Made by a program: the position numbers and the translations under genes
Virus record (IMG/VR): IMGVR_UViG_3300042934_000426
Coordinates: 40,951 to 104,950 of that record
Length of the DNA stretch: 64,000 bases
From: a virus
Direction: 5' to 3' (one strand)
Shown here: positions 2,570 through 48,426 of the stretch, one piece after another
Layout of the letters: every line of letters starts with the position of its first letter
Position numbering within the stretch: position 1 is the stretch's first letter
The notes under the pieces: model-generated
Database searches by the model: none
What the model was told of the DNA's origin: nothing
Seen by the model: the letters and a program-made list of their open reading frames with translations, nothing else

Positions 2570-5170
2570 CTACCTCACTTCTATATTGGCTTTCTTAAAG
2601 AGCGGAATCATATAAGCTATGTCGTCATATGTGACGTCGGTTGCTTCTTTCTTCTCTTTCTTCGGCTTCACCCATGCTGTACCGTCAGCGTCCCAGCTTA
2701 CATCTAAGGCATGTTGCCATATCTTACCGACGGCTGGTTCGGCTATGATAGGTAGAATTTCCGTAAAGCCTTCGAGCGGTGCTTCCATAACCTCTTTTAT
2801 CCAGCGTGCTCCTTCCGAAGCGTATTCGATTGGACATTCAGCCTGGATTTCATCGTGGATTTGCATAACCTGTTTGATATACGGTGCTTCCTTGATGGAA
2901 CGCTTCTTAATCTCCACCATGGCTCTTCGGATGATATCACTTGCTGACCCCTGAATAGGTGTGTTCATGGCTTTGTTTTCTGCGGACTTCCGAATAAACT
3001 CTTTCGGGTGATTAATGTCAGGAATCGGTCTTCGGTTTCCGAAGAGGGTTTCCACATATCCGTATTCTCTAGCGAAGCTGATTTGACTGTCCGCATACCC
3101 TCTAATACCTGGGTAGGTCGCCATGTAGTTGTTGATGAATACTTTCGCTTCGTCTTTGGTCATACCCATTTGTCGGTCTTTGGATAAGCCGAATTCGGTC
3201 ATCCCATAGACGATTCCGAAGTTAACTTTTTTGGCACGATATCGATACGGCTTAAACTTACTCTTTACTTCGTCGATGGTGCATTGTAGCTTGAATACTT
3301 CTCTTGCCACTAGGCTATGAAGGTCAATGTTATCGATAAAGGCTTGAATCATGTTCTTTTCCTGGGCGAACCAGGCGAGAACCTTTAGCTCAATTTGAGA
3401 ATAGTCACATCCGATAAAAATGGTTTCTCCGCTCAATTTATGCGTGATAATCATAATGTTCGGACGGGTAAAAATGTTCTGCTGGGTATAGTCAGCGGTT
3501 AGGTCATAGCTTGGTGCTTCGAAGACCCCTCGAATTCCCATCGGGTCGTTATCGGGTCGTGGGATATTCTGCAAATTCGGCTTCTTCGAAGATAGTCGCC
3601 ACGTACTAACAAGATTGAGCTGGGTGTGCAATTTATTGGTGTCTTTTCGGCAAAACGGAAGCATACCATTCACATAGGTACTAAGAATTTTGGTGTACTT
3701 CGAACGCTCCTTCAGTACTTTCATAAAGGCGCTGTCGCCTTCGTAGCTGTCGATTATGAGCTCCATATTGTCTTTCCCTGTTCCAGGTATTCCTGTCGTC
3801 TTCGAGCGCTCTACGCCCCTTGTATCGACTTGTAGGACGTGGAAGAATAGCCATGACTTATGCTGAGGACTTCCCCAGGAAAACGGCTTCGGTGTCTTGA
3901 TTTCTAAGGCTACAGGGTCACCACGCCATTGACCCATTCCGTAAACCCCAGCGGGTACAATGACGTTACCGTGGTCGTCGACGCCCGCATGGTCTTTCGT
4001 AACCTCTCGTAAGGCTTCGTAGAGTTTTTGTTCGATACAGTCGTCTTCCCAATCTCCCGCTTCGATTTGCTCTTCGGTCATGGTTTCTCTTCCGTATAGC
4101 GCACGAAACGCTACCCGCTCCATATCCCGAAGCTTATCGGGATTCACCCGCCAACCCGCTAACTCAATTTCTCCCAGGGTCATCATAAACGGGACATTCA
4201 GCTCGAAGTACACGTCGTCTAAGCCTTCAGCCACTAGAAGCGGGTAACACTTTAGATACACACCCAGCCCCCAATCACTGTCGGAACAGGCATAGTCAAC
4301 GCTATGCTTATCGACGGGCAATTCGTTAAACGTGCGGTAGCGGGATTGTTTCTTCGTCTTCGGAAGTCCCTTTTTTGCCCCCGACTTGTAGTATTCGCCA
4401 GGGATAGGTTCTTCCCATTCGTGCTTTCCAACCGTTTGCTTAAAGGTTTTAATATTATCTACATGAATCAATCCATGCACCCATCCATCTTTGTCTGCTA
4501 ATAGAGCTTTTGTGGCGGGCTTTAATCCGACTTCGGTTTCTCCTTCTGCTCCGACGGTTTCGGGTAAGGCTAGTTGCTTCACCATCACCAACGTACAAAT
4601 GATTTTTCGGGTCAACGTCTTCGGGAACATATCAATGCCGTGTAATAAGCTCCATTGGTGCTCGGCTTTGATGTTATGGGCAATGACTAGGATTTCAGGG
4701 TCTTCGAGAAGAGGTTTTAAGAACTCTTGCATGATGAAGTCTGTTTCCCAATTCGCTCCGTAGCTAGTATGGTTCATAGGGAAGTAAAACGCCTGACCGA
4801 TTTCCCAGGCTACCGATACCCCTACGATTTCGTGGTCTTGCGGGTCTTGGGTGTCGTCTTCAGGGTCACCGTTTGTTTCATAGTCGAAGCTAATGATTTT
4901 CTTCTTTCGAATTTCCTGAGCTATGGTTCGAAGCTTCGGAAGGTCATTTTTTCCGACCGCATGATAGCCTCTTCCTGGTAGCTCTACATTTAGTATTTGC
5001 TGGACTTCAGCGGTGCTTTCTGCCTGAGCGATTCGTGCCTTCGCTTGCGGACTTAACTTCGTTGGGGTCGTGGTTCTACTTGGTGCGATTACTCGCTTCG
5101 GCTCTTCCCTCTTCGGAAGTGCCTTTTTCTTTTGGCTTGCTACCTTCTCTTTGAGCTTCGCTAGGCTCAT
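2570..5170 (-). CDS. Family A DNA polymerase with 3'-5' exonuclease
   Basis: Exonuclease motifs SFDYET, AHNIKAE, YACSD; polymerase motifs RLSSKKPNLQNIP, DYSQIELKVLA, RAKKVNFGIVYG, QIHDEI. Confidence 0.95.
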   Translation of the reverse strand: MSLAKLKEKVASQKKKALPKREEPKRVIAPSRTTTPTKLSPQAKARIAQAESTAEVQQILNVELPGRGYHAVGKNDLPKLRTIAQEIRKKKIISFDYETNGDPEDDTQDPQDHEIVGVSVAWEIGQAFYFPMNHTSYGANWETDFIMQEFLKPLLEDPEILVIAHNIKAEHQWSLLHGIDMFPKTLTRKIICTLVMVKQLALPETVGAEGETEVGLKPATKALLADKDGWVHGLIHVDNIKTFKQTVGKHEWEEPIPGEYYKSGAKKGLPKTKKQSRYRTFNELPVDKHSVDYACSDSDWGLGVYLKCYPLLVAEGLDDVYFELNVPFMMTLGEIELAGWRVNPDKLRDMERVAFRALYGRETMTEEQIEAGDWEDDCIEQKLYEALREVTKDHAGVDDHGNVIVPAGVYGMGQWRGDPVALEIKTPKPFSWGSPQHKSWLFFHVLQVDTRGVERSKTTGIPGTGKDNMELIIDSYEGDSAFMKVLKERSKYTKILSTYVNGMLPFCRKDTNKLHTQLNLVSTWRLSSKKPNLQNIPRPDNDPMGIRGVFEAPSYDLTADYTQQNIFTRPNIMIITHKLSGETIFIGCDYSQIELKVLAWFAQEKNMIQAFIDNIDLHSLVAREVFKLQCTIDEVKSKFKPYRYRAKKVNFGIVYGMTEFGLSKDRQMGMTKDEAKVFINNYMATYPGIRGYADSQISFAREYGYVETLFGNRRPIPDINHPKEFIRKSAENKAMNTPIQGSASDIIRRAMVEIKKRSIKEAPYIKQVMQIHDEIQAECPIEYASEGARWIKEVMEAPLEGFTEILPIIAEPAVGKIWQHALDVSWDADGTAWVKPKKEKKEATDVTYDDIAYMIPLFKKANIEVR

Positions 5171-6098: not shown

Positions 6099-9000
6099 TT
6101 ATGTGTTCAAGTATTCAATGAACTTCGGTAACTTCCGAAGCCCATCACGGGTACGTTTAATCATGCTATGCTTCGTGAGGATTGCCAGTCGGTCATTCAC
6201 CTGTTTTCGCTCGAATCCTAACATATCGATAATCTCGGCTGGCTTCAGAATATCGTTCTTTCGGAAGAGCTCTAGGATTTCTTCCGATACGGCTACGTTC
6301 TCCCCGAAGTCCATGTTTTCAAGGGTTTGGCGAATCTCTTCCGCTTCTTCTTCGGTCAGCTCGGATTCTTCTTTGCTCTTGGCACTATAAATGTCTAGGC
6401 GGGCGTTTTGGTTGTCGTAAATCACTTGGATAAAGTCAGCTACATACTCCACATGGTCAGGATTCACAATCACCTTCTCATGCGCTTCGTCGGTTGAATG
6501 AAGCAAGCTTGCTAGACTAATAGCCATACGTGCAATCTTCTTCCGAAGGTCAGACGGCTCTAAAAGCGGAATGTCCTGAGCGTAGCCGTACTTCTCGCCT
6601 AACTCGTCAGCCTTCGCTAGAATCTTACGCATAGCGGGCTTCGTAATCTCAATGTGTTCAGGTTTGCGTGACCACGCCCATAGAATCGAATCCCGAAGAG
6701 CTTCGGAAGTGATTAGTTGAACTTCGGGCTTGTCGTATTCCTGATTGAGTACCGCCTTCGTGACGTCACCTGACTGAAGGAATATCGCCATATCCAAACG
6801 TCTGATATCTGCTGGTGAAGCGAACAACGGTTTTAAGGCTTCTACCCCATGCGTGAAGCTCGATAGCGTTCTTGCCTTCGCTGGGTTCGTTAAAAGGATT
6901 AATCGGACACGGGCGTTGGTTTCGGTGTTGACCGTACGGTCTACTCGAAGTACCCCTGTGGTTCTCGCTTCGGTAATCTTACCAAAGTCTTCAGGGTGTA
7001 ATTCAGAAAATTCGTCGATTGCGATTAGCTTGCGGTCACTAAGCGGGTATTTCCCCCAGGTGATGAACCATCGTTCACCCATTTGCTCTAGGCGGTAGAC
7101 TAATCCTGTACGGGACGTTCCTTCCCCTGACGTCATATTTCCTAGCCCCGCGAATTCCATAATGTTGCTAACAAGCTGGGTCTTCGCTTGCCCTGAATCT
7201 CCGACGAATACCGTTTCCAGCCAGCCACGCTTTTCGAGCTGACCCTGGAAATAATAGTTTAAAGCGGAATGGTAGGTTAATAGTACCGCCAGGTGTGGCT
7301 CGAAGCGTTCTCGTACCAGGGTCACGTTGTCTACCAGGTCGCCTACTAACAGGCTCACTCTATCGTCAATCGTTTCCCCTTCTTGCACCTTGAATACATC
7401 TAATCGTTGTCTAGCCTCTTCGGTCATTTCAAACTTTGATATGCTATCCTCTAACGGCTCTTGCTTTTGGCTCAGAATGGTCGCCATAGCGTTTTTCGGG
7501 TGACTATAGACATAACCCTCTAGGTCATAGTGTGTATTCGCCTGTACGTCATTTCCGACGGCATACACCTTACGGGTCACGTACTCATTTCCTTCTCCGT
7601 CTACTTCCTTCGAAGACCCGTCTTCCCCTTTGACCGTCTTTACACGGTCAGCCATGGGCACCACTAGGAGCTCGGTGATATTTTCGTGTTCCAGCACTTC
7701 GGATTTAACCTTCTTACAGGAAGCTCCTGAATGGTGGAAGAGTATTCCTTTTAGCTGGGTATCATTTTGGTTGGTGGCTTCGATTAGGAATCGTTCATTT
7801 TCATGGAATTCCCGCTCGTATAGCCCACCGAAGTCGTGCATAATACAATCTTTGTCACAGAACGGTTCATGGCTACATACATAGCGAACCTTCTTTGGCA
7901 CAATGTAAGGCGTATCCATTTTCCCTGATACCAGGGCGCTAAACGCTACTTTCTTTCCTGTGAATTCGGCATTAGCTGTCTTCGCTAGGTGCATGTGCTC
8001 GGCTGGCTCTTGGTCAATGGCGAAGTCTTCGTGGGCTGGGCATGCACGCCCCGCACATGGAACGGTTTCATAGTCACGTCCCTTACGCTCTCCTGATAGG
8101 CTTCGAATGAAGGCACAACCGAAGTGGTACTTTTGGTCTTCGTACACCGTTTTAATACACCCAATCGTAGACGCTTGCACTTCCGAAGGAGAAGAGCTAG
8201 TGAACGACTTCGGAATCTTTTTGACCCAATCGCACAAAATCTTGACCGTTTCGCTCATAGGGTAACCAGCGTCTTTATAGTACGAAGCTAGCGCCATTGT
8301 CGCTTTGTTACGGTCGCCTGATTTGAGGATTCCACGCTCGATGATAAATTGAACACATACAGGTACACCTTCCATTTGCTTTAGTACGGTGTCCTTTAGG
8401 GTTACACGGTCTGTATAGAGCTTATCAACTTCTTCCCATGCTTCGACTTTACTCGCATACCATTCGTGAATGTCTTCGTTCAAATTGTACTCACATTGGT
8501 CAGGCGGGTAGAGGTCAGGACGTGGTGACTTTGCCAATCCATTAATGATGTTCCGAAGGTCGCTTTTCACTTCGTCATGGGTCAGTTCTACTTTGAATAG
8601 CCCGCTCTTATAGTGGATGGAATTCACCAGGCGAAGCATGCGACGGGTTCCGTAAATGGAAGAGGAATCTAAGCTTTTTAGTCCTAGCTGGGTTTCTAAG
8701 GTAACCGCGATAAACTTGATAATTCGGTTTAGCTTTTTATGTGGCTGGATTCCCATAATCGTCGGATTCGCAATCACATGGAAGCCCTTCGAACCGCTGA
8801 AGTACACCCTGATTTCGTCTTCAGTTACCTGAAATCGCTCCGTGAAGTAATGAAGAATCTTTACGACGTCACTTCGGCTCATTTCCAGGTTTTTAATCCA
8901 TACAAAATCAGTACACGCCTGGTCACTGTCCACATAGTCATTAATCGATTGATTCGTGTCTTTTGATAACGGAATACCCATTTCGTAATTGCGAAGGTGT

Positions 9001-9368
9001 AATAATAGGTTTTCAGGTAATAGTCCGATTAATTCGTCCGCCTTTACCGCTCCCATTTCGACCAGTCCTGGGGCTTCCTGAATAACACCTTCTTTTACTT
9101 CCGAAGTAAGACTTCGTGAGCTATCAATATCGAAGAATAACGGCATATAAAGGAGCTCGGCTTCCCCATCAGGTCTTACCTTGTTACGAAAAGTTTGAAT
9201 GGTGGAAAATACGTTGTAATTGCCGTATTGTTGCCTGAAGTCTTCCAGCTTATCCGCTTCGGTGCGGTTCCATTTCGTGTTCACGCCCGTTTGCGGGTTC
9301 TTGTGGTAGACGTCCACATAGAGGAAGTCCTCTAGTTTGATTTCGCTTTTCTTTTTCCCTTTTGCCAT
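6099..9368 (-). CDS. Fused AEP primase / MCM-like replicative helicase
   Basis: AEP motifs FFDIDS, YFSGSKGFHV and RMLRL; PriCT/PriL-like PVCVQ...GDRN region; Walker A GDSGQAKT, Walker B IAIDEF, MCM-like TSRTGL, ILLTNP and RRLD; C-terminal wHTH. Confidence 0.85.
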   Translation of the reverse strand: MAKGKKKSEIKLEDFLYVDVYHKNPQTGVNTKWNRTEADKLEDFRQQYGNYNVFSTIQTFRNKVRPDGEAELLYMPLFFDIDSSRSLTSEVKEGVIQEAPGLVEMGAVKADELIGLLPENLLLHLRNYEMGIPLSKDTNQSINDYVDSDQACTDFVWIKNLEMSRSDVVKILHYFTERFQVTEDEIRVYFSGSKGFHVIANPTIMGIQPHKKLNRIIKFIAVTLETQLGLKSLDSSSIYGTRRMLRLVNSIHYKSGLFKVELTHDEVKSDLRNIINGLAKSPRPDLYPPDQCEYNLNEDIHEWYASKVEAWEEVDKLYTDRVTLKDTVLKQMEGVPVCVQFIIERGILKSGDRNKATMALASYYKDAGYPMSETVKILCDWVKKIPKSFTSSSPSEVQASTIGCIKTVYEDQKYHFGCAFIRSLSGERKGRDYETVPCAGRACPAHEDFAIDQEPAEHMHLAKTANAEFTGKKVAFSALVSGKMDTPYIVPKKVRYVCSHEPFCDKDCIMHDFGGLYEREFHENERFLIEATNQNDTQLKGILFHHSGASCKKVKSEVLEHENITELLVVPMADRVKTVKGEDGSSKEVDGEGNEYVTRKVYAVGNDVQANTHYDLEGYVYSHPKNAMATILSQKQEPLEDSISKFEMTEEARQRLDVFKVQEGETIDDRVSLLVGDLVDNVTLVRERFEPHLAVLLTYHSALNYYFQGQLEKRGWLETVFVGDSGQAKTQLVSNIMEFAGLGNMTSGEGTSRTGLVYRLEQMGERWFITWGKYPLSDRKLIAIDEFSELHPEDFGKITEARTTGVLRVDRTVNTETNARVRLILLTNPAKARTLSSFTHGVEALKPLFASPADIRRLDMAIFLQSGDVTKAVLNQEYDKPEVQLITSEALRDSILWAWSRKPEHIEITKPAMRKILAKADELGEKYGYAQDIPLLEPSDLRKKIARMAISLASLLHSTDEAHEKVIVNPDHVEYVADFIQVIYDNQNARLDIYSAKSKEESELTEEEAEEIRQTLENMDFGENVAVSEEILELFRKNDILKPAEIIDMLGFERKQVNDRLAILTKHSMIKRTRDGLRKLPKFIEYLNT

Positions 9369-9534: not shown

Positions 9535-10185
9535 CTATTCAGCTTCTACTACGCCTACGTTTTCAAATTCTACACGGCTATAACGAATTTTCTTGTCGTT
9601 ACGGTTTTCCTGACGGCTGATTGTCATTTTCGTATAGATTTGGTTGATGGCGAAGCCCGCTTTGGCTTGTGCTTTTACGTAGTCGATAAAGTTCATAGCG
9701 GAAGCGGTCGGAAGCGTCATGATGTACTCAGTCGGCTCACCTTCTTCGCCTTCTTCGAACCAGCGAATTTCGAATTTCAATTTATATCGGTCGTCTAATT
9801 TCGTGTCGCTATTGTTGTACTTATTGTTGTCTTCGTCAAACCATTGATAGAAGCGTTTTCCGAAGCTTACAACCATTATAATCTCCGTAGCTGTTTCATT
9901 GCTTGCTTTGTAAAGGAAGTTTGTTCCGTCGATGGATACGTAATTACCGCCACCTGTGATATCGTCGATATTATCCAGGATTCCAGCGTTCATAACCGCC
10001 ATTTGATTCGGGTTGTTGTTTACGGCTGGTGTTGCAGATTGGTTACGTGGTGCTGGTGTTTGGTTTGTCATGTGATTACCCCCGTTTTGAACTGTTTGCT
10101 GATTTGCATGTTGGTCTACGTTACCCGCTGGTACTGAGGTTGTTTGGGCTTTTGGTGCTCCCCCACGATTTGCTCTTAATGCCAT
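9535..10185 (-). CDS. Hypothetical replication protein, possibly ssDNA-binding
   Basis: Start reassigned to MALRANRGG (SD AAGGTGGA). Disordered N-terminus followed by a beta-rich domain; lies upstream of the primase-helicase. Function is inferred only. Confidence 0.55.
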   Translation of the reverse strand: MALRANRGGAPKAQTTSVPAGNVDQHANQQTVQNGGNHMTNQTPAPRNQSATPAVNNNPNQMAVMNAGILDNIDDITGGGNYVSIDGTNFLYKASNETATEIIMVVSFGKRFYQWFDEDNNKYNNSDTKLDDRYKLKFEIRWFEEGEEGEPTEYIMTLPTASAMNFIDYVKAQAKAGFAINQIYTKMTISRQENRNDKKIRYSRVEFENVGVVEAE

Positions 10186-10248
10186 AATGTTTTCCACCTT
10201 TCTGTCAGCTATCGGCTGAACACTGTAATATGATTTGCGGTAGCCTTC

Positions 10249-10450
10249 GATTTGGTCTACCAAAAGTGATTCGAAGACGCTCGGCACAGTTCCACGTTTA
10301 GCTCACTCATTTCGTCAATCCCGCTTAGTGTCTATGCAAGTATCTATTGCGGGAGAAAGTGAGCGTGTACTGTCTTGCCTTTACGAATTTCCTACCCCTA
10401 GGTCGTTCGTTTGCGTGGGGTACTTCGAATCAGCTTTTGCTAGACCGAAG
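10249..10450 (-). ncRNA. Candidate structured RNA, unit 2
   Basis: Ends pair over ~26 bp (CUUCGGUCUAGCAAAAGCUGAUUCGAAG with CUUCGAAUCACUUUUGGUAGACCAAA). Internal long hairpin (GCUCACU/AGUGAGC, UCCCGC/GCGGGA) and a UACCCC/GGGGUA hairpin. Confidence 0.6.
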
Positions 10451-10499
10451 GGAGCGTCGGTGTAAATCCACCGATACTTTGTTGGTTTGACCCCGCCTA

Positions 10500-10663
10500 T
10501 TTCGGTCTACCGAAAAGGGTTCATTACCTGGACTGATTACCAGCTTTGGTGGGATTTACGGTGTTTACCGTTCAGCCGTACTTTCGCCCGCTTAAAAGGG
10601 GTACTATTCAGCCATACTAAGAATTGACCTAACCCGTTATGAACGCCTTTCGCTAGACCGAAG
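10500..10663 (-). ncRNA. Candidate structured RNA, unit 1
   Basis: Ends pair (CUUCGGUCUAGCGAAAGGCGUUCAU with AUGAACCCUUUUCGGUAGACCGAA); the closing helix matches that of unit 2. Confidence 0.6.
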
Positions 10664-10667
10664 CGTG

Positions 10668-10946
10668 TTAAGCTTCAAGTCCCTGGCTCTTTAAGAAGTT
10701 AGCCAGCCCGCTTTGCGGGAAACGACGTACTTTATGTTTTCCTTCAGGATTAATCACCGTATAGGGAATGTTGAAGTCTTCTAGCACCCGATAAAAGGTG
10801 TTTCGGCTTTGGCAAGGGAAGCCCTTGCTACTAAGGTAATCCATGGCTTGTTGCATTGTCAACATTTTATCGTCTACTAGGATTGCTTTTGCTTGCTTTG
10901 CTTTCGCCACTTGCCTTCCGCTCCTTTCTTGTTTGAAGTTGTTCAC
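10668..10946 (-). CDS. Excisionase/MerR-like HTH DNA-binding protein (likely true start GTG at 10910)
   Basis: MLTMQQAMDYL...SRNTFYR...RRF...L..FL HTH_17-like pattern; AGGAG SD precedes the internal GTG. Confidence 0.7.
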   Translation of the reverse strand: MNNFKQERSGRQVAKAKQAKAILVDDKMLTMQQAMDYLSSKGFPCQSRNTFYRVLEDFNIPYTVINPEGKHKVRRFPQSGLANFLKSQGLEA

Positions 10947-10969: not shown

Positions 10970-10998
10970 ATTATAGAGGTGTCCTATACGTTTGTCAA
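10970..10998 (-). promoter_or_regulatory. Perfect-consensus sigmaA promoter
   Basis: TTGACA-aacgtataggacacctc (17 nt)-TATAAT; TTGTTCAAAGTTG lies immediately upstream of the -35. Confidence 0.9.
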
Positions 10999-11144
10999 CA
11001 ACTTTGAACAAAATTATTTTATCGGTTTAGAGAATGTTTTATGACACGAATAGCAAACGTAATCTATTTCTGTATCACCTGGAAAAATAACCAAAAAGTC
11101 TGTGTCTGTACTTCCACAGTTAGGGCAACCTACTTTATTAGCTG

Positions 11145-11726: not shown

Positions 11727-13520
11727 CTATATCAGGTCTAGTAAGTCTTGTGGTGAGCTGAAGAGCTTCTTCATCACTACCTCGTCTTCGTCTACGATGG
11801 CTTTGAAGAGCTCCCGCTTGTTCTCTAGGATTTCGAGCTTCTTCTCTTCGTAGCTTCCTTCGGTAATCATGTTAATAGCGGTGACGGCTGACTTCACCCC
11901 GTTACGGTGGGCACGGGCATAAATTTGTTCCATCTTTTGCGGGTTGAATAGCTGGTCATAGCATATCACATATGACCCCATAGAAAGGTCTAGCCCGTAG
12001 TTACCAGCGGTGGTCATCAGCACACATTGAATGTCCCCGTTTTGGAATTCATTCTGAATCCGTCCTGTTTCGGTCGCTTTCAGTCCACCTTTGATGTAGC
12101 CAATTTGCTCCTTCCGAAGTCCTAACTTTTCATTGCTGGTTAGCCATGTGTAAAGTATGTCTGTCATTTCCTTGTATTGGCTGAACAGGATAAACTTGTG
12201 GCGGTGTGGGTCAAGGTCAACAATAATATCGCCTAGGGCGTTCATTTTTCCGCTTTCTTCAGGTAAGTTCGAATTTTCCATCACCTTCCGAAGTAGGGCT
12301 GGTGAATCGCATACTTGCTGAAGGCGGGTAATTTGCGCTAGTGCTTCCAGGTAGGAAAACTCGCTTCCTTGCTCTTTCGCGATTTCTAGGATTCCGTCTT
12401 TTACTTGCTTATACAGTCGTTGTTGTTCCTTCGTCATTTTAACCGAATAGTTAACCACGGATAGTGGTGGTAGGTCAGGTAGTGCGTCCGCTTTCGACTT
12501 CCGAAGCATGATAGGTTCTAGGCGCTTCGTCAGCTCACTAATCATTTGGGGCTTTGGTGCAACAGGTTTTCCAAAGAAGTCCATTTCTACATAGCGGTCT
12601 AGGAACTTGTAGTAAGTACCTAAGATACCAGGTCGGCAAAAATCGGTTAGTGTCCATAGTTCTTGAATGTTATTTTCAAGCGGTGTTCCTGTTCCCAGGA
12701 TTTTACGACCCGCTGGTTTCAGCTTCTTAATCAAGTTCTTCGTCGTTTGTGCCTTCGGGTTCTTAATACGATGGGCTTCGTCTAGGATAACCAACCAGCG
12801 TCCATCTACAGGTGGGATAATGTCCATATCCCGAAGGAAGAGCTCATAGTTCATAATCGTCACATCAGCCCCATATTCGTATTGCTGATATTGCACTTCA
12901 CGAAGCTTTGCACCTGTCAGCTTCTCCTTCGTACCGTCTTCCCATTCGACCGTTTCCCGCTTGTCACCGTCAATCACGACATATTCCAGCGACGTCCATT
13001 TTTTGACTTCCTTTTCCCAGGTGGAATACTTCAAAGGTGACGGGCATACCACCAATAGATAATCGACTAATCCTTTGTTCTTCCAATCGACGAAGCTCGC
13101 TAGCCCCGTGAGTGATTTTCCTAATCCCATATCGAAGGCTAGGATAGCACCCTCTCCGTCTTCGAGCGTATCCAGGAACGCCTTCCCTACCGCCTGGTAC
13201 GGGTAAAGCTCTCCTTTTAATCCTTTGATTTTTCCGCTTACTTTCTTTTCGTCAATGCTTTTCACGGCTACCGCTTTTTGCTGACGGTCTTTTAAGTCCT
13301 TGAATACTTGCTTGACAGCTGGTGCAATTTCTAACGAAGGCATAATACGCAAAGCGTCTTCGGTTGATTCTAATGGGATTTCCCAGCGTTTCGCTGAACG
13401 CTCCCAGGCTGACCCAGGGATTGCACGAATCAAGTCTTTATAGCTGAATGTCTTTCCAGCGAAATAAAGTGTTTTGCTACTGCCTTCTGATAACTGTAAA
13501 CTGATTGTCATATGTGACAC
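11727..13520 (-). CDS. SNF2-family helicase/translocase
   Basis: LYPYQ, DMGLGKS, LDEAHRIKN, TGTPLENN, ILFSQY, GLDL and QIYARAHRNG motifs; HARP-like N-terminus. Confidence 0.92.
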   Translation of the reverse strand: MSHMTISLQLSEGSSKTLYFAGKTFSYKDLIRAIPGSAWERSAKRWEIPLESTEDALRIMPSLEIAPAVKQVFKDLKDRQQKAVAVKSIDEKKVSGKIKGLKGELYPYQAVGKAFLDTLEDGEGAILAFDMGLGKSLTGLASFVDWKNKGLVDYLLVVCPSPLKYSTWEKEVKKWTSLEYVVIDGDKRETVEWEDGTKEKLTGAKLREVQYQQYEYGADVTIMNYELFLRDMDIIPPVDGRWLVILDEAHRIKNPKAQTTKNLIKKLKPAGRKILGTGTPLENNIQELWTLTDFCRPGILGTYYKFLDRYVEMDFFGKPVAPKPQMISELTKRLEPIMLRKSKADALPDLPPLSVVNYSVKMTKEQQRLYKQVKDGILEIAKEQGSEFSYLEALAQITRLQQVCDSPALLRKVMENSNLPEESGKMNALGDIIVDLDPHRHKFILFSQYKEMTDILYTWLTSNEKLGLRKEQIGYIKGGLKATETGRIQNEFQNGDIQCVLMTTAGNYGLDLSMGSYVICYDQLFNPQKMEQIYARAHRNGVKSAVTAINMITEGSYEEKKLEILENKRELFKAIVDEDEVVMKKLFSSPQDLLDLI

Positions 13521-17854: not shown

Positions 17855-18048
17855 AAAAAATTTTGGGAAATCGCCTATTACGTATCAACTCGTACGTAAT
17901 ACTCAATGACACACGCTATAGTGTCTATCTGAAAAATTTTTTATTTTTCTCTCCGCTGATAAAAAATAAAAAAATAAATTTTTGAAAATCAAAACCCTTG
18001 TGACACCACTACTACGTACCAACTCGTACGTAATAGAAGGTTTCCCAT
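17855..18048. repeat. ~190-bp intergenic element A: two 26-bp dyads flanking an A/T-tract core
   Basis: TATTACGTA-TCAACTCG-TACGTAATA at 17876-17901 and TACTACGTA-CCAACTCG-TACGTAATA at 18010-18035; inverted homologue at 48233-48426. Confidence 0.9.
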
Positions 18049-23113: not shown

Positions 23114-26100
23114 CTACAAGCTTCCTTCGTAGGCGTACCATTCCCACGTAACAACCTGTCCCGCTTGATAGGAGCTAAAGGTAAAACCTGTAGATGTAGT
23201 AGAAGCTGTACCATAAGATGTGTAAACGTTACCGCCATTATGGTACCAATCATAACAGTTCATAGCGTCTTCTCTTGCTATTTGACCTGCGTCACTATTC
23301 TTGTACCATGAGCCAACGATTGTTCTTCTAAATAATAAACTGGAACCTGTAGTGAATCCCATAAGAAGAACCACAGCGGGCTCAAAAGCTAAGTTGTTTA
23401 CGGTTTGTACAGTGTCGGGATTAATAAAATAAAAGGCTCCTGACGCTTTCCGTCCAACGGTTCCTGTGACCCCGAAAATATTGACACCTTTTAGGATATT
23501 AAAAGCCTTTAAGTCAGCGTCACCCGCAATCGTAATCGCACTAGAGTAATAGCCCGCTGGTTTCGTTTGATTACTAGCCGAAGGGGTAACGGTTCCACCC
23601 GCTCCATTATTTGCTATGGTTCCTGATACGACTGCCCCATTGACGAAGGCTTTTCGCCCTGTAAGGATTTGTGAAGCGCTTGCTGGTGCTGTCGCTTCGG
23701 TTGTATCGATGACGTTCGTCGCTCCCGCTACTCCGAAGATATTGACACCCGCTTTGATGTTGGCGCTCACTAGGTCAGTGTCACCAGCCACCGAACCACC
23801 ACTGTAGTAACCCGCTGGTATAGAAATAGCGCTTGCTCCTGGTGTAAAGCTAGGACTTCCTTGGTTCGGCATGGTTCCTGTTGTTTTTGTCCCATTTACC
23901 CAGGCAATTCGACCCGTCAAAATCTGTGAATTTGTTGCTGGGGATGTACCTTCTGTCGTGTCTACTACCTGGGACTTTCCAGCTACCCCAAAGATATCCA
24001 CGCCCGCTTTAATGTTCGCACTTATGAGGTCAGGGTCACCCGCTATGGAGCCACCGCTATAGTAGCCCGCTGAAAGAGGGATAGAGCCTATTCCTGGTGT
24101 AAAGCTAGGACTTCCTTGGTTCGGCATGGTTCCTGTGACCTTCGCCCCGTTCACGAAGCCTATTTTACCTGTCAGAATTTGCCCCGCACTCGCTGGCGAA
24201 GTCGCTTCGGAAGTATCGACGACGTTCGTCGCTCCCACTACTCCGAAAATATCCACGCCCGCTTTGATGTTGGCACTCACTAAGTCGGTATCTCCGCTGA
24301 TAGTAATGGCGCTTGAATAGTAGCCCGCTGGCTTCGTTTGGTTAGCCGTTCCTGGTGTGACCGTTCCACCCGCTCCATTGTTTGCCATGGTGCCTGTGAC
24401 CTTTGCCCCTTGGACGAAGCCCACTTTTCCTGATAGGACGTCACCAGCCGTGATTCGATTCGCAACCGTCGCTTCGGCTGTGTCGACCACTTCGGTTTTC
24501 CCCGCTACCCCAAAGATATCCACACCCGCTTTGATGTTGGCGCTTATAAGGTCAGCGTCCCCTACAATAACGCTTGGGTTTCCTAATCCGTAGTAACCGT
24601 AAGGAATCGTTATGTCTGTCGCTCCAGGTGTAAAGGTCTTTTTTGTTCCTACTAAAGCATAATCAGGCATAGTCCCTACTTTTTTAACCCCATTTACAAA
24701 CCCTACGTAACCTTCTCGTAAATCTTGAACATCTATAGGTTTAGTCGCGTCGGAAGTATCGACGACGTTCGTCGCTCCCACTACTCCGAAAATATCCACG
24801 CCCGCTTTGATATTCGCGCTTATGAGGTCAGCGTCACCACTAATAGTAATAGCGCTTGAATAATAGCCCGCTGGCTTCGTTTGGTTCGCTGTGCTTGGTG
24901 TGACCGTGCCACCCGCTCCATTGTTTGCCATGGTTCCCGTGACCTTTGCCCCTTGGACGAAGCCTACTTTCCCTGTAAGCATATCACCAGCCGTTACACG
25001 GTTACCAACGGTCGCTTCGGAAGTGTCTACCACTTCTGTTTTCCCCGCCACACCGAAGATATTCACGCCCGCTTTGATGTTGGCTGAAATCAGGTCAGCG
25101 TCACCTGAAATGACGCCCGCACCACTATGGTATCCGTCAGGGATTGTAATATTAGCGGTTCCTGGTGTAGCGCCCCATGCCCCTCTATCAGGCATAGTAC
25201 CTGTGATTTTCGCACCATTTACAAACCCAACTCTTCCCGCTAATACACGCCCTACCGTAATAGGAGAAGGTACTTCGGTGGTATCCACCACTTCGGTTTT
25301 CCCCGCTACCCCAAAAATATCAGCACCCGCTTTGATGTTGGCGCTCACTAAATCAGCGTCACCCGCTATGGTGATATCCGTAGAGTAATACCCATAGCCT
25401 TTTGTTTGGTTCGCTGTACCAGGTGTGACCGTTCCACCAGCTCCACGATTCGGCATATCTCCGATTAGCTTCACACCATTTACGAAGGCTACTTTATTAT
25501 TTACGATATGACCTGTTATAGCTGGTGAGGTCGCTTCGGAAGTGTCGACCACTTCGGTTTTCCCCGCTACGCCAAAGATATCTACGCCCGCTCGAATATT
25601 ACCTGTTAGAAGGTCAGCGTCGCCCGCTACGGTACCTGTACCATCGTGGTAACCCGCTGGTATCGTTTGATTCGCTGTCCCAGGCGTTATGCTCGTTGTA
25701 GAAGTTGCCATGGTTCCTGTGACCTTAGCCCCGTTGACGAAGGCAACTTTAGGCGCTAAAATGTGGCTCGCTCCCGCTGGATTAAGCGCTTCGGAAGTGT
25801 CTGATACCGTCGACGTCCCCGCTACACCAAAGATGTTCACGCCCGCTTTGATATTGCCTGGTACTAAGTCGGGGTCACCTTCGATGGTAATCGCTCCATC
25901 ATAAACACCCGCCCCCTTTACGATATTGGCTGTACCTGGTGTGATGGTTTGAGCCGTTGTTGCTTGCACCGCTAGCGTCCCTGTTACGAGCGCACCATTG
26001 ACATAAGCTTTCTGCCCGCTTCGGATTTGACCCGCACTTGCTGGGTTTGTGCTTACGGACGTGTTTACGACGTTTGTGTCACCCGCTACTCCGAAGATAT

Positions 26101-27520
26101 TAACGCCCGCCTTAATGTTGGCTGTTACGAGGTCTGCGTCTGTTATCTGTATGTTAGGTTCACCACCAGGGTAGTAACCTTTTGGTACATGTACAGACAC
26201 CGATGTATCCGTATTCGTATTTATCCATGTAGTATCTTCATTTACAACGCCTGTTTTATTAGTCATAGACCCTGTTTGGTCACCTGTATCATTTGAGAAT
26301 GTTTTTCCGCTCAATACTTCTGCTGGTTGAGCGTTTCCTGACCCCCCTTCACCCTGTAAGATAAAATCCGTGCCGTTATAGACCAGCGTATAAACGCTTC
26401 CTGTTTTTAAGTTTCCAGCGGATAAAAGACCGCCATTCCCTTTTTTAATCGTCTTCGCGCCTAAACCGTTCACGTTAACCGTTGCGGAACCTGTATTATC
26501 CGCATGAATCTCTAATCGAAGCGATAGTCCTTTGACTAGGGTAGGGGCTGGCGTTAAAGTAGCGGTATAAGCCGTTCCTGTGCCCGCTGACACGACATAA
26601 GGCGTGTGAAGGGTAAAGGTATTCGCGTGGGCGTTTAAGGTCGTTTGAGTGACTAGTGATTCCCATGCTGTCCATGTACTGTTTGACTTCTTTCGACTAT
26701 ACGTACCTTCGGGGTTCGTACCAATCGCAATTTGTACCCCACCTGTTGCGGAAGTTTTTATATGAATAATACCGTAGTAATCAGCTAGTATACCTCTTGG
26801 ACTGTTTGTTAGGTTTGTTCCTTGATAAAAACCTGTTACGTCTAAAGTATTTAAGTCTGTGCTACCAATATCTTTCGCCACACTACCCAATCCGAAGCCC
26901 TTCGCAAAGTTAATCGCATTAGTTTCAGCGGTACTCGATAAGGCGGTCGCAATCGCTCTAGCGTCCGCTAGAATGGTTGTATCTGTAAATGTTAGTTTCT
27001 GTACCGTAGGTTGACCCCCTACCGCCACAATATCGCACAGCTTTTGGAAGGTACCTGTCCCTACGTTCGTCTTCGTCAACTGATAGGTCACTTGTAGTCT
27101 TCGGGTCGTTTCCTCTCCCATACGAGCGTCTAGCATGGTATTCGGTACGGTTGTCGAAGTCGCTAAGTCCCCATGCTTCTTAATTCCGTCTGTATGAGCT
27201 TTCACGCTCTCGATTTTATTTAAGTAAACAGCGTCCCCACTGGCTACGGCAAAATCGGTCGAAGTAAGGAGGATAATTTCCCCGTCAATCGATACGTATT
27301 CATTCGTGATATTCAGCTTCCCGTTGGCTACGGCATACGTTCCCATGTACAGAGGTCTGCTTCCGAAGACTAATTGTAGTAGTCGTGCGGTTCGGAAGTT
27401 TTGGATATCCTGAGCTTCGTTGAGCTCGGCTTCGGTTATCTTCGCGTCCGCACCGAAAATGACCTTCTTAAATTGTGCTTCTTTGTTGAAATAACTATCG
27501 ACTGTAAAAATAGCTGGCAT
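23114..27520 (-). CDS. Long tail fibre / receptor-binding protein with 11 internal repeats
   Basis: N-terminal baseplate anchor (ELNEAQ), a DLNT..TGFY fibre motif, and 11 copies of (G)DxDLxxxNI(K/R/L)xG(V/A)xIFGVxG. Confidence 0.9.
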   Translation of the reverse strand: MPAIFTVDSYFNKEAQFKKVIFGADAKITEAELNEAQDIQNFRTARLLQLVFGSRPLYMGTYAVANGKLNITNEYVSIDGEIILLTSTDFAVASGDAVYLNKIESVKAHTDGIKKHGDLATSTTVPNTMLDARMGEETTRRLQVTYQLTKTNVGTGTFQKLCDIVAVGGQPTVQKLTFTDTTILADARAIATALSSTAETNAINFAKGFGLGSVAKDIGSTDLNTLDVTGFYQGTNLTNSPRGILADYYGIIHIKTSATGGVQIAIGTNPEGTYSRKKSNSTWTAWESLVTQTTLNAHANTFTLHTPYVVSAGTGTAYTATLTPAPTLVKGLSLRLEIHADNTGSATVNVNGLGAKTIKKGNGGLLSAGNLKTGSVYTLVYNGTDFILQGEGGSGNAQPAEVLSGKTFSNDTGDQTGSMTNKTGVVNEDTTWINTNTDTSVSVHVPKGYYPGGEPNIQITDADLVTANIKAGVNIFGVAGDTNVVNTSVSTNPASAGQIRSGQKAYVNGALVTGTLAVQATTAQTITPGTANIVKGAGVYDGAITIEGDPDLVPGNIKAGVNIFGVAGTSTVSDTSEALNPAGASHILAPKVAFVNGAKVTGTMATSTTSITPGTANQTIPAGYHDGTGTVAGDADLLTGNIRAGVDIFGVAGKTEVVDTSEATSPAITGHIVNNKVAFVNGVKLIGDMPNRGAGGTVTPGTANQTKGYGYYSTDITIAGDADLVSANIKAGADIFGVAGKTEVVDTTEVPSPITVGRVLAGRVGFVNGAKITGTMPDRGAWGATPGTANITIPDGYHSGAGVISGDADLISANIKAGVNIFGVAGKTEVVDTSEATVGNRVTAGDMLTGKVGFVQGAKVTGTMANNGAGGTVTPSTANQTKPAGYYSSAITISGDADLISANIKAGVDIFGVVGATNVVDTSDATKPIDVQDLREGYVGFVNGVKKVGTMPDYALVGTKKTFTPGATDITIPYGYYGLGNPSVIVGDADLISANIKAGVDIFGVAGKTEVVDTAEATVANRITAGDVLSGKVGFVQGAKVTGTMANNGAGGTVTPGTANQTKPAGYYSSAITISGDTDLVSANIKAGVDIFGVVGATNVVDTSEATSPASAGQILTGKIGFVNGAKVTGTMPNQGSPSFTPGIGSIPLSAGYYSGGSIAGDPDLISANIKAGVDIFGVAGKSQVVDTTEGTSPATNSQILTGRIAWVNGTKTTGTMPNQGSPSFTPGASAISIPAGYYSGGSVAGDTDLVSANIKAGVNIFGVAGATNVIDTTEATAPASASQILTGRKAFVNGAVVSGTIANNGAGGTVTPSASNQTKPAGYYSSAITIAGDADLKAFNILKGVNIFGVTGTVGRKASGAFYFINPDTVQTVNNLAFEPAVVLLMGFTTGSSLLFRRTIVGSWYKNSDAGQIAREDAMNCYDWYHNGGNVYTSYGTASTTSTGFTFSSYQAGQVVTWEWYAYEGSL

Positions 27521-47477: not shown

Positions 47478-47577
47478 CATATGAAACAAGGACAATCCAC
47501 AATACACCCCTGGCTAGGTTAGAGCTGGTAGAAACCTTGGCTAGAGTGGTTATTGCGGACTGTCCTTGTTTGATATG
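47478..47577 (-). promoter_or_regulatory. ~100-nt RNA hairpin in the 5' leader of the protease-capsid operon
   Basis: CAUAUCAAACAAGGACAGUCCGCAAUA pairs with UAUUGUGGAUUGUCCUUGUUUCAUAUG; mismatches resolve as G-U pairs on the minus strand. Confidence 0.7.
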
Positions 47578-48232: not shown

Positions 48233-48426
48233 ATGGGAAACCTTCTATTACGTACGAGTTGGTACGTAGTAATGGTGTCACAGAGGTTTTGATTTTCAAA
48301 AATTATTTTTTTATTTTTCTTCACCTGAAGGATAAAAATAAAAAATTTTTCTCTTAGACTTCGAACGTCTGCATGCCACTATTACGTATCAACTCGTACG
48401 TAATAGAGGGTTTCCCAAAATTTTTT
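48233..48426. repeat. ~190-bp intergenic element B, inverted homologue of element A
   Basis: 26-bp dyads at 48246-48271 and 48380-48405, with the same 134-bp spacing as in A. Confidence 0.9.

Follow-up and report, generated by a model that had tools for sequence, protein, structure and literature searches.

An undescribed structured element, most likely RNA, with a conserved closing helix and an exchangeable interior upstream of replication genes in uncultured soil phages

Two structured units, each closed by a long helix, sit between a small regulator gene (HTH-like) and the replication genes of an uncultured soil phage. Our main result is that the closing helix is a real, locus-specific structure under selection, because its pairing has been kept through compensating changes across ten units, and that the interior it encloses is exchangeable between phages. 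The element is undescribed, structured and most likely RNA, and nothing comparable was found in the literature searched. The DNA analyzed, referred to below as the window, covers the final 64 kb of a complete virus record of 104,950 bp that has direct terminal repeats.

The minus strand holds nearly all genes of the window, and the features around the element are as follows:

13520..11727, minus strand: SNF2-type helicase gene, upstream, followed by two small ORFs and then the promoter
10970..10998, minus strand: sigma-A type promoter, TTGACA-17-TATAAT, with 12/12 consensus matches
10929-10946 and 10994-11011, strandless: 18-nt inverted repeat around the promoter, a candidate operator
10668..10946, minus strand: HTH-like ORF of 92 aa, between promoter and gap, present in all relatives
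10186-10667, minus strand: 482-nt gap holding both units
9535..10185, minus strand: p216, a 216-aa ORF, the first replication gene downstream of the units
9368..6099, minus strand: primase-MCM fusion of 1089 aa, downstream of p216
5170..2570, minus strand: family A DNA polymerase, downstream of the primase-MCM gene

The gap takes these limits because the p216 ORF starts at the ATG at 10185..10183. Its sense strand has no ORF of at least 30 aa except an upstream extension of the p216 frame, and a conserved ORF is absent from the minus strand of 10186-10667, bearing out the ORF-poor stretch of about 480 nt that the initial annotation described. The perfect sigma-A promoter named there was also confirmed. 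Judged by its position, this promoter would drive the HTH gene, both units and the replication genes, and no terminator-like site was found on the minus strand between the promoter and 9400.

Three further repeats were observed elsewhere in the window. A 42-nt cassette, likely a phage-specific promoter or leader, occurs four times ahead of minus-strand genes (13547, 18917, 19553 and 19973). A 1468-aa ORF (23114-27520, minus strand) contains eight or nine repeats of ~255 nt (~85 aa), as in Ig-like domain arrays. A 27-nt inverted repeat (47478-47504 / 47551-47577) occupies an intergenic gap, and look-alike arms of the AACAAGGACAGC type are present in three other genomes (G002, G003 and G004).

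Within the gap, the following parts were distinguished:

10500-10663, minus strand: unit 1, with arms at 10636-10662 and 10501-10527 and a multi-stem interior of 108 nt
~10456-10476, minus strand: small spacer hairpin between the units
10249-10450, with an outer extension to 10244-10453, minus strand: unit 2, with a closing helix of ~24 bp carrying G.G and C.A mismatches, and a junction with a long bulged hairpin
10186..10248, minus strand: leader with the ribosome-binding site of the p216 gene, A-rich and weakly structured, with motifs that recur in relatives

Both units, their shared arm sequences and the small hairpin separating them were found where the initial annotation had placed them. 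The closing helices measure 22-25 bp. That of unit 1 is made up of 9 bp, a G.G mismatch, 7 bp, a C.C mismatch and 6 bp; unit 2 matches it in the outer part and the G.G mismatch and continues with 6 bp, a C.A mismatch and 10 bp, so the mismatch proposed as common to both is present in both helices. The predicted folds had energies of -55.7 kcal/mol for unit 1 (z -3.8) and -76.8 kcal/mol for unit 2 (z -6.0), and none of 200 shuffles was as stable in either case. The sequence AGUAYGGCUGAA does occur twice in unit 1, as reported (10618-10607 and 10582-10571). In the 104,950-bp genome, the 14-nt motif of the 5' arm was found at both unit copies and in one chance match with a single mismatch, and nowhere else.

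As a DNA search of 50,697 GenBank phages gave no match, relatives were sought through the flanking proteins. A search of GenBank phages with p216 also gave no match. The SNF2 helicase search led to nine related viral contigs, alignments of p216 and the HTH protein added further metagenome and viral contigs, and nine further lineages remained after removal of duplicates (L009, L010, L012, L015, L016, L020, L025 and L050, plus near-copies). Their flanking proteins are 45-73% identical to those of the window. In each, the shared promoter and HTH gene are followed by a single unit whose closing helix measures 22-29 bp, and in all lineages the element lies between the HTH stop codon and the SSB-like gene (p216, see below). 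The units span 60-230 nt. Five complete genomes each have one such locus, with two units in the window's genome and a single unit in the four others. Searches of IMG/VR with exact arm motifs returned either contigs identified before or chance matches lacking the second arm, and helix descriptors of our own making were unspecific (108 matches vs 63-95 in shuffles). The element family is at present limited to about ten lineages, none of them cultured.

Ten units were aligned with MAFFT, both arms being in register, and 24 helix pairs were scored. Standard pairs made up 88.2% of cells, compared with 70.3 ± 1.6 in shuffles, and changes on both sides were seen in 19 of the 24 pairs, compared with 9.2 ± 1.9. 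The covariation score was 0.588 (0.243 in shuffles), and none of 500 shuffles reached any of the observed values. When the partner was slid by 1-3 columns as a control, pairing fell to 30-49%. The conservation of the closing stem that had been proposed from the window is thus upheld by covariation across ten units. The G.G mismatch, which follows CUA, was present in 8 of the 10 units when helices were drawn for each unit, and in 7 in the fixed alignment column, L015 being aligned from the helix base. It was kept in L016 although neighboring pairs had changed; L009 and L012 have a G-C pair at this position. Nearly all units carry a second single mismatch 4-9 bp further in, and the closing helices make at least two turns, interrupted by a single mismatch every 5-10 bp.

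A helix that exists only as RNA typically favors G-U pairs. In the closing helix we counted 11 G-U cells vs 11 A.C cells, the sense strand was the more stable in 7 of the 10 units, and folding energies were alike on both strands. Because G-U and A.C cells were equal in number and the sense strand was better in only 7 of 10, the substitution pattern is silent on the strand concerned, and on RNA vs single-stranded DNA.

The interiors are mostly unrelated between lineages, and their lengths are:

L025: 6 nt
L020: 45 nt
L015: 62 nt
L010: 76 nt
L016: 85 nt
window unit 1: 108 nt
L012: 134 nt
L009: 166 nt
window unit 2: about 200 nt

The statement that the two interiors of the window are unrelated held up, as they proved to be two different modules, unit 1 resembling the L012 unit and unit 2 the L010 unit. 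In unit 1, the inner stem and the first part of the interior are also found in L012. The inner stem of unit 2 recurs in the L010 unit, as do an ACCCC-N-CGCAAA stretch, a CUAGGGGU loop region and a UAAAGGC junction; a few pairs show compensatory changes between the two, and in L010 a short hairpin takes the place of the long one of unit 2. In both, ACCCC could pair with GGGGU; in L050 a local hairpin made of these two motifs lies immediately beyond the unit. Over the outer 10 bp the window's two units are identical to each other and differ from both L010 and L012, so that outer stems have either been homogenized within a genome or been fitted to a reader particular to that genome. No support was found for a role of the interior as such, which the initial annotation had put forward in proposing the release of two small RNAs, as L025 has only a 6-nt loop.

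The slot between the HTH gene and p216 can hold more than closed units. In L050, which comes from the complete 102-kb genome G001 (L050 2709-3203 corresponds to G001:C1:12058-12549), the slot is ~800 nt long and contains, in order:

first: a 101-nt tRNA-like RNA, 37 bits on the tRNA model and above threshold, with an insert in the anticodon region
second: a degenerate tRNA-like element
third: several hairpins
fourth: tRNA-Ile(UAU), 66.6 bits
last, immediately ahead of p216: a closed unit carrying the usual G.G mismatch

All tRNA matches of genome G001 fall in this slot, which is a place where the clade keeps genes for stable RNAs; since the G001 slot holds tRNA genes, its transcripts must be processed into stable RNAs. 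Neither ARAGORN nor Rfam RF00005 detected a tRNA in the window or in the whole 104,950-bp genome, and in the absence of any cloverleaf there the tRNA class was rejected for the units. The stable RNAs C and D of phage T4 are small, lie in a tRNA cluster, and are co-transcribed and processed with the tRNAs. The likeness is that of a small stable phage RNA co-transcribed with tRNAs, but the window's phage has none.

One cultured relative lacks the element. Bacillus phage vB_BboS-125 (L253, MH884509.1 27561-28550) encodes a primase-MCM protein 38% identical to that of the window, in the order helicase, HTH protein, p216-like protein, primase-MCM and polymerase (PolA). Its p216 homolog (245 aa) matches the p216 family profile (E 2.5e-11). 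Only 21 nt separate the HTH gene from the p216 homolog, and no structured element is present. As the gene order exists there without it, the cassette is an addition of the soil-phage clade and not a fixed part of the replication module, which does not need the element as such.

This absence would also suit a functionless selfish or relic palindromic element (MITE-like) that had landed in an intergenic spacer, as would the terminal inverted repeats, the unrelated interiors, and the two adjacent copies lying intergenically just after a stop codon. Correia and MITE-type elements have inverted terminal arms of ~25 nt around 50-200 nt, and form an RNase III-sensitive hairpin when transcribed. Here, however, there is one syntenic locus per genome, the arms show compensatory changes, and no dispersed copies were seen: in the five complete genomes the arm sequence was found only at the locus, so that the unit was rejected as a member of the MITE or dispersed-repeat class. 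The site is the same in lineages whose flanking proteins are 45-60% identical, no transposase is linked, and the changes on both sides that keep pairing at 19 of 24 positions need selection. The MITE-like reading is largely refuted, and we regard it as very improbable.

A second alternative is a function in replication at the DNA level, in which the element would extrude as a hairpin or cruciform, or fold in single-stranded DNA, and serve for example to load or prime the adjacent primase-MCM helicase and the SSB-like protein. Its place within the replication module, immediately ahead of the genes for the OB-fold protein and primase-MCM, speaks for this, as do the strand-symmetric substitutions and similar fold energies described above. 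Long DNA palindromes need regularly spaced mismatches for stability, which also counts for this explanation. Against it, the spacing of the arms ranges from 6 to ~200 nt, one relative has tRNA genes in the slot, vB_BboS-125 has the same replication genes without the element, and GC skew gave no signal at the locus. There are also better origin-like loci in the genome, namely a 38-42-nt inverted repeat with A/T-rich cores that is present in triplicate (window 17864-18047 and 48234-48417, and, outside the window, genome 9226-9421); these copies look more like origins or partition sites than the units do. We therefore consider a DNA element unlikely.

The sequences were then compared with described RNA classes. 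At the Rfam 15 gathering threshold the window gave 0 matches, at E ≤ 10 the region gave only two chance-level matches, and across eight related loci only tRNA was found, in L050; the element itself thus matched no described family. Of the functions suggested earlier, a 6S-like RNA was not supported, there being no 6S-type match at E ≤ 10, and the predicted folds have multi-helix junctions and not the central bubble of 6S. An antisense guide fared no better: no complementarity of at least 14 nt to the phage genome was found, and because the longest (13 nt) is at chance level, antisense action on the phage's own genes is unlikely. Y RNA and YrlA were rejected (no TROVE (Ro) match in the genome, no Y_RNA or YrlA match at E ≤ 10), as was a retron msr-msd (no RVT_1 match in the genome). 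ROOL and GOLLD are large RNAs of phages and prophages that often lie close to tRNA islands (PMC12286853). The units resemble them in being phage-borne structured non-coding RNAs, with tRNA genes at the same locus in one relative, G001 only; yet ROOL and GOLLD measure ~600-800 nt compared with 60-230 nt for the units, only the closing stem is conserved here, and no covariance-model match was obtained in the window, the region or the relatives, so these two families were rejected as well.

The initial annotation had also raised the possibility of decoys, and the units might act in counter-defense as stable double-stranded or mimic RNAs that soak up a host factor, for instance a dsRNA-sensing or RNA-guided defense protein, or a tRNA-directed nuclease. 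The conserved outer stem would then act as bait, and an arms race would have produced the rapidly changing interior as a side effect. Expression early in infection from a promoter of host type, the hypervariable interior and variable copy number, the site shared with tRNA and tRNA-like genes, and an outer stem that is identical in the window's two units while their inner stems are those of different lineages would all be in keeping with this. Nonetheless, the units have no similarity to known guide, repeat or Y RNAs, there is no Ro gene, and in viral contigs the 14-nt arm motifs occur singly and never in arrays. This explanation appears quite unlikely to us.

The downstream protein, p216, had been listed as an uncharacterized candidate partner. 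An AlphaFold2 (AF2) model from 6 sequences was unusable (pLDDT 40), and a model from a 35-sequence alignment reached a pLDDT of 79, with more than 90 over the C-terminal 140 residues. Its best solved match was the phiC31 recombination directionality factor gp3 (9teh_I), with Z 8.3 and an rmsd of 3.8 over 130 aligned residues, followed by gp32 of T4 (Z 5.7) and of RB69 (Z 4.6), and dozens of SSB, RPA and PriB OB-fold chains gave Z 4-5. Foldseek returned 40 uncharacterized viral proteins at E ≤ 0.001. The family is sparse, with 39 representatives among 1.8 billion proteins, and no relatives were found in 185,579 prokaryote genomes. On the strength of this model p216 is read as a putative SSB-like replication protein with an OB fold, which adds a probable identity to a gene earlier left uncharacterized.

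The T4 gene 32 protein represses its own translation, and the fold shared by the p216 model with T4 and RB69 gp32 raises a further alternative, that of a leader acting in cis on the SSB-like gene. The helix would serve as a nucleation point or boundary, with the A-rich leader used for self-repression, or would protect the 5' end of the mRNA. The unit nearest the p216 gene always ends 60-100 nt before its start codon, even in L050 where tRNAs lie between the unit and the HTH gene, and the intervening leader is A-rich and weakly structured, with short motifs common to the lineages. As in the gene 32 mRNA leader, an SSB-type gene is preceded by an unstructured leader and, ahead of that, by a structured element. 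The T4 operator, however, is a small pseudoknot and not a helix of 25-30 bp with inserts, the tandem units and large ornate interiors are left unexplained, and the p216 homolog of vB_BboS-125 has no such leader. We consider a cis-acting leader unlikely.

The upstream HTH-like protein, the other candidate partner named in the initial annotation, more likely binds DNA than the structured units. Its promoter is bracketed by the 18-nt inverted repeat listed above, the upstream half of which recurs almost unchanged in front of the HTH gene in L009, L010 and L025; because this repeat is kept in relatives, DNA is the likely target, and the repeat is probably the operator of the HTH protein. The protein shows 45-61% identity across lineages with 21 invariant columns. 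It had no Pfam or PHROG match and a weak PDB match, and no relatives were detected in 185,579 prokaryote genomes.

The explanation that we tentatively prefer, while giving it somewhat less than an even chance, is that the closing helix is an RNase III-type double-stranded stem in an early operon transcript, carrying exchangeable structured RNA inserts. We infer sense-strand RNA action, cleavage and functional inserts. An RNA is preferred because the units lie on the coding strand, behind a strong promoter, with no terminator and in the company of tRNAs. The units would be structured parts of an early transcript that starts at the sigma-A promoter and covers the HTH gene as well as the replication genes. 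Each unit would be a cassette, made of a conserved basal helix of ~25-30 bp, interrupted by single mismatches, and an apical slot that different phages would fill with different structured RNAs, or leave empty. A helix of this length would suit a double-strand-specific endoribonuclease, most plausibly host RNase III; a cut within it would part the HTH message from the replication-gene message and might free the insert as a discrete small RNA. All 10 units have a helix of 22-29 bp on the transcribed strand, compared with the minimum of 20 bp within a transcript taken for an RNase III site. As no RNase III gene was found in the phage genome, a host enzyme must be assumed. Against this RNase III explanation stand the lack of strand bias in the substitutions of the closing helix, a sense strand that folds better in only 7 of 10 units, the lack of an RNase III gene in the phage, the same gene order without the element in vB_BboS-125, and the minimal form in L025, which is a plain hairpin, so that the interior may be neutral expansion and not cargo.

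The rRNA operons and the T7 early region are processed by RNase III at stems. The stems of the rRNA operons and of the T7/T3 early region share with the present element a long imperfect helix that flanks a stable RNA or lies between cistrons, covariation, and the possible presence of tRNA genes in the same transcript. They differ in that the RNA enclosed here is small, varies between lineages and can be absent, that the G.G mismatch is conserved, and that cleavage is only proposed here. In addition, there is a single site per genome here, and not one after each early gene as in T7/T3. No RNA sequencing run containing the stretch was found; the only run that contains it is a soil DNA metagenome, which may itself be the source.

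A more far-reaching reading, to which we assign a low probability, is that the outer stem and its G.G mismatch form a docking or excision signal for a specific factor and so define a slot for RNA cargo, the cargoes being early decoys against host defense. Phages of the clade would swap, duplicate and express small structured RNAs, with tRNAs alongside, and the identical outer stems within one genome, around inner parts that derive from different lineages, would reflect co-evolution with the reader. If true, the slot would be an RNA-level counterpart of gene cassettes.

The design of the element is unusual, combining a conserved clamp with free content, variable copy number and tRNA neighbors, and it comes from a poorly charted field, since almost all known phage non-coding RNAs are from cultured phages. 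Should the element work as DNA, its position would show where the rare primase-MCM type of phage replisome initiates or loads. If the clamp is instead a processing signal, it would offer a simple means, already present in nature, of freeing any small RNA from an mRNA in Gram-positive hosts, and would provide a handle for finding phage small RNAs without sequence conservation.
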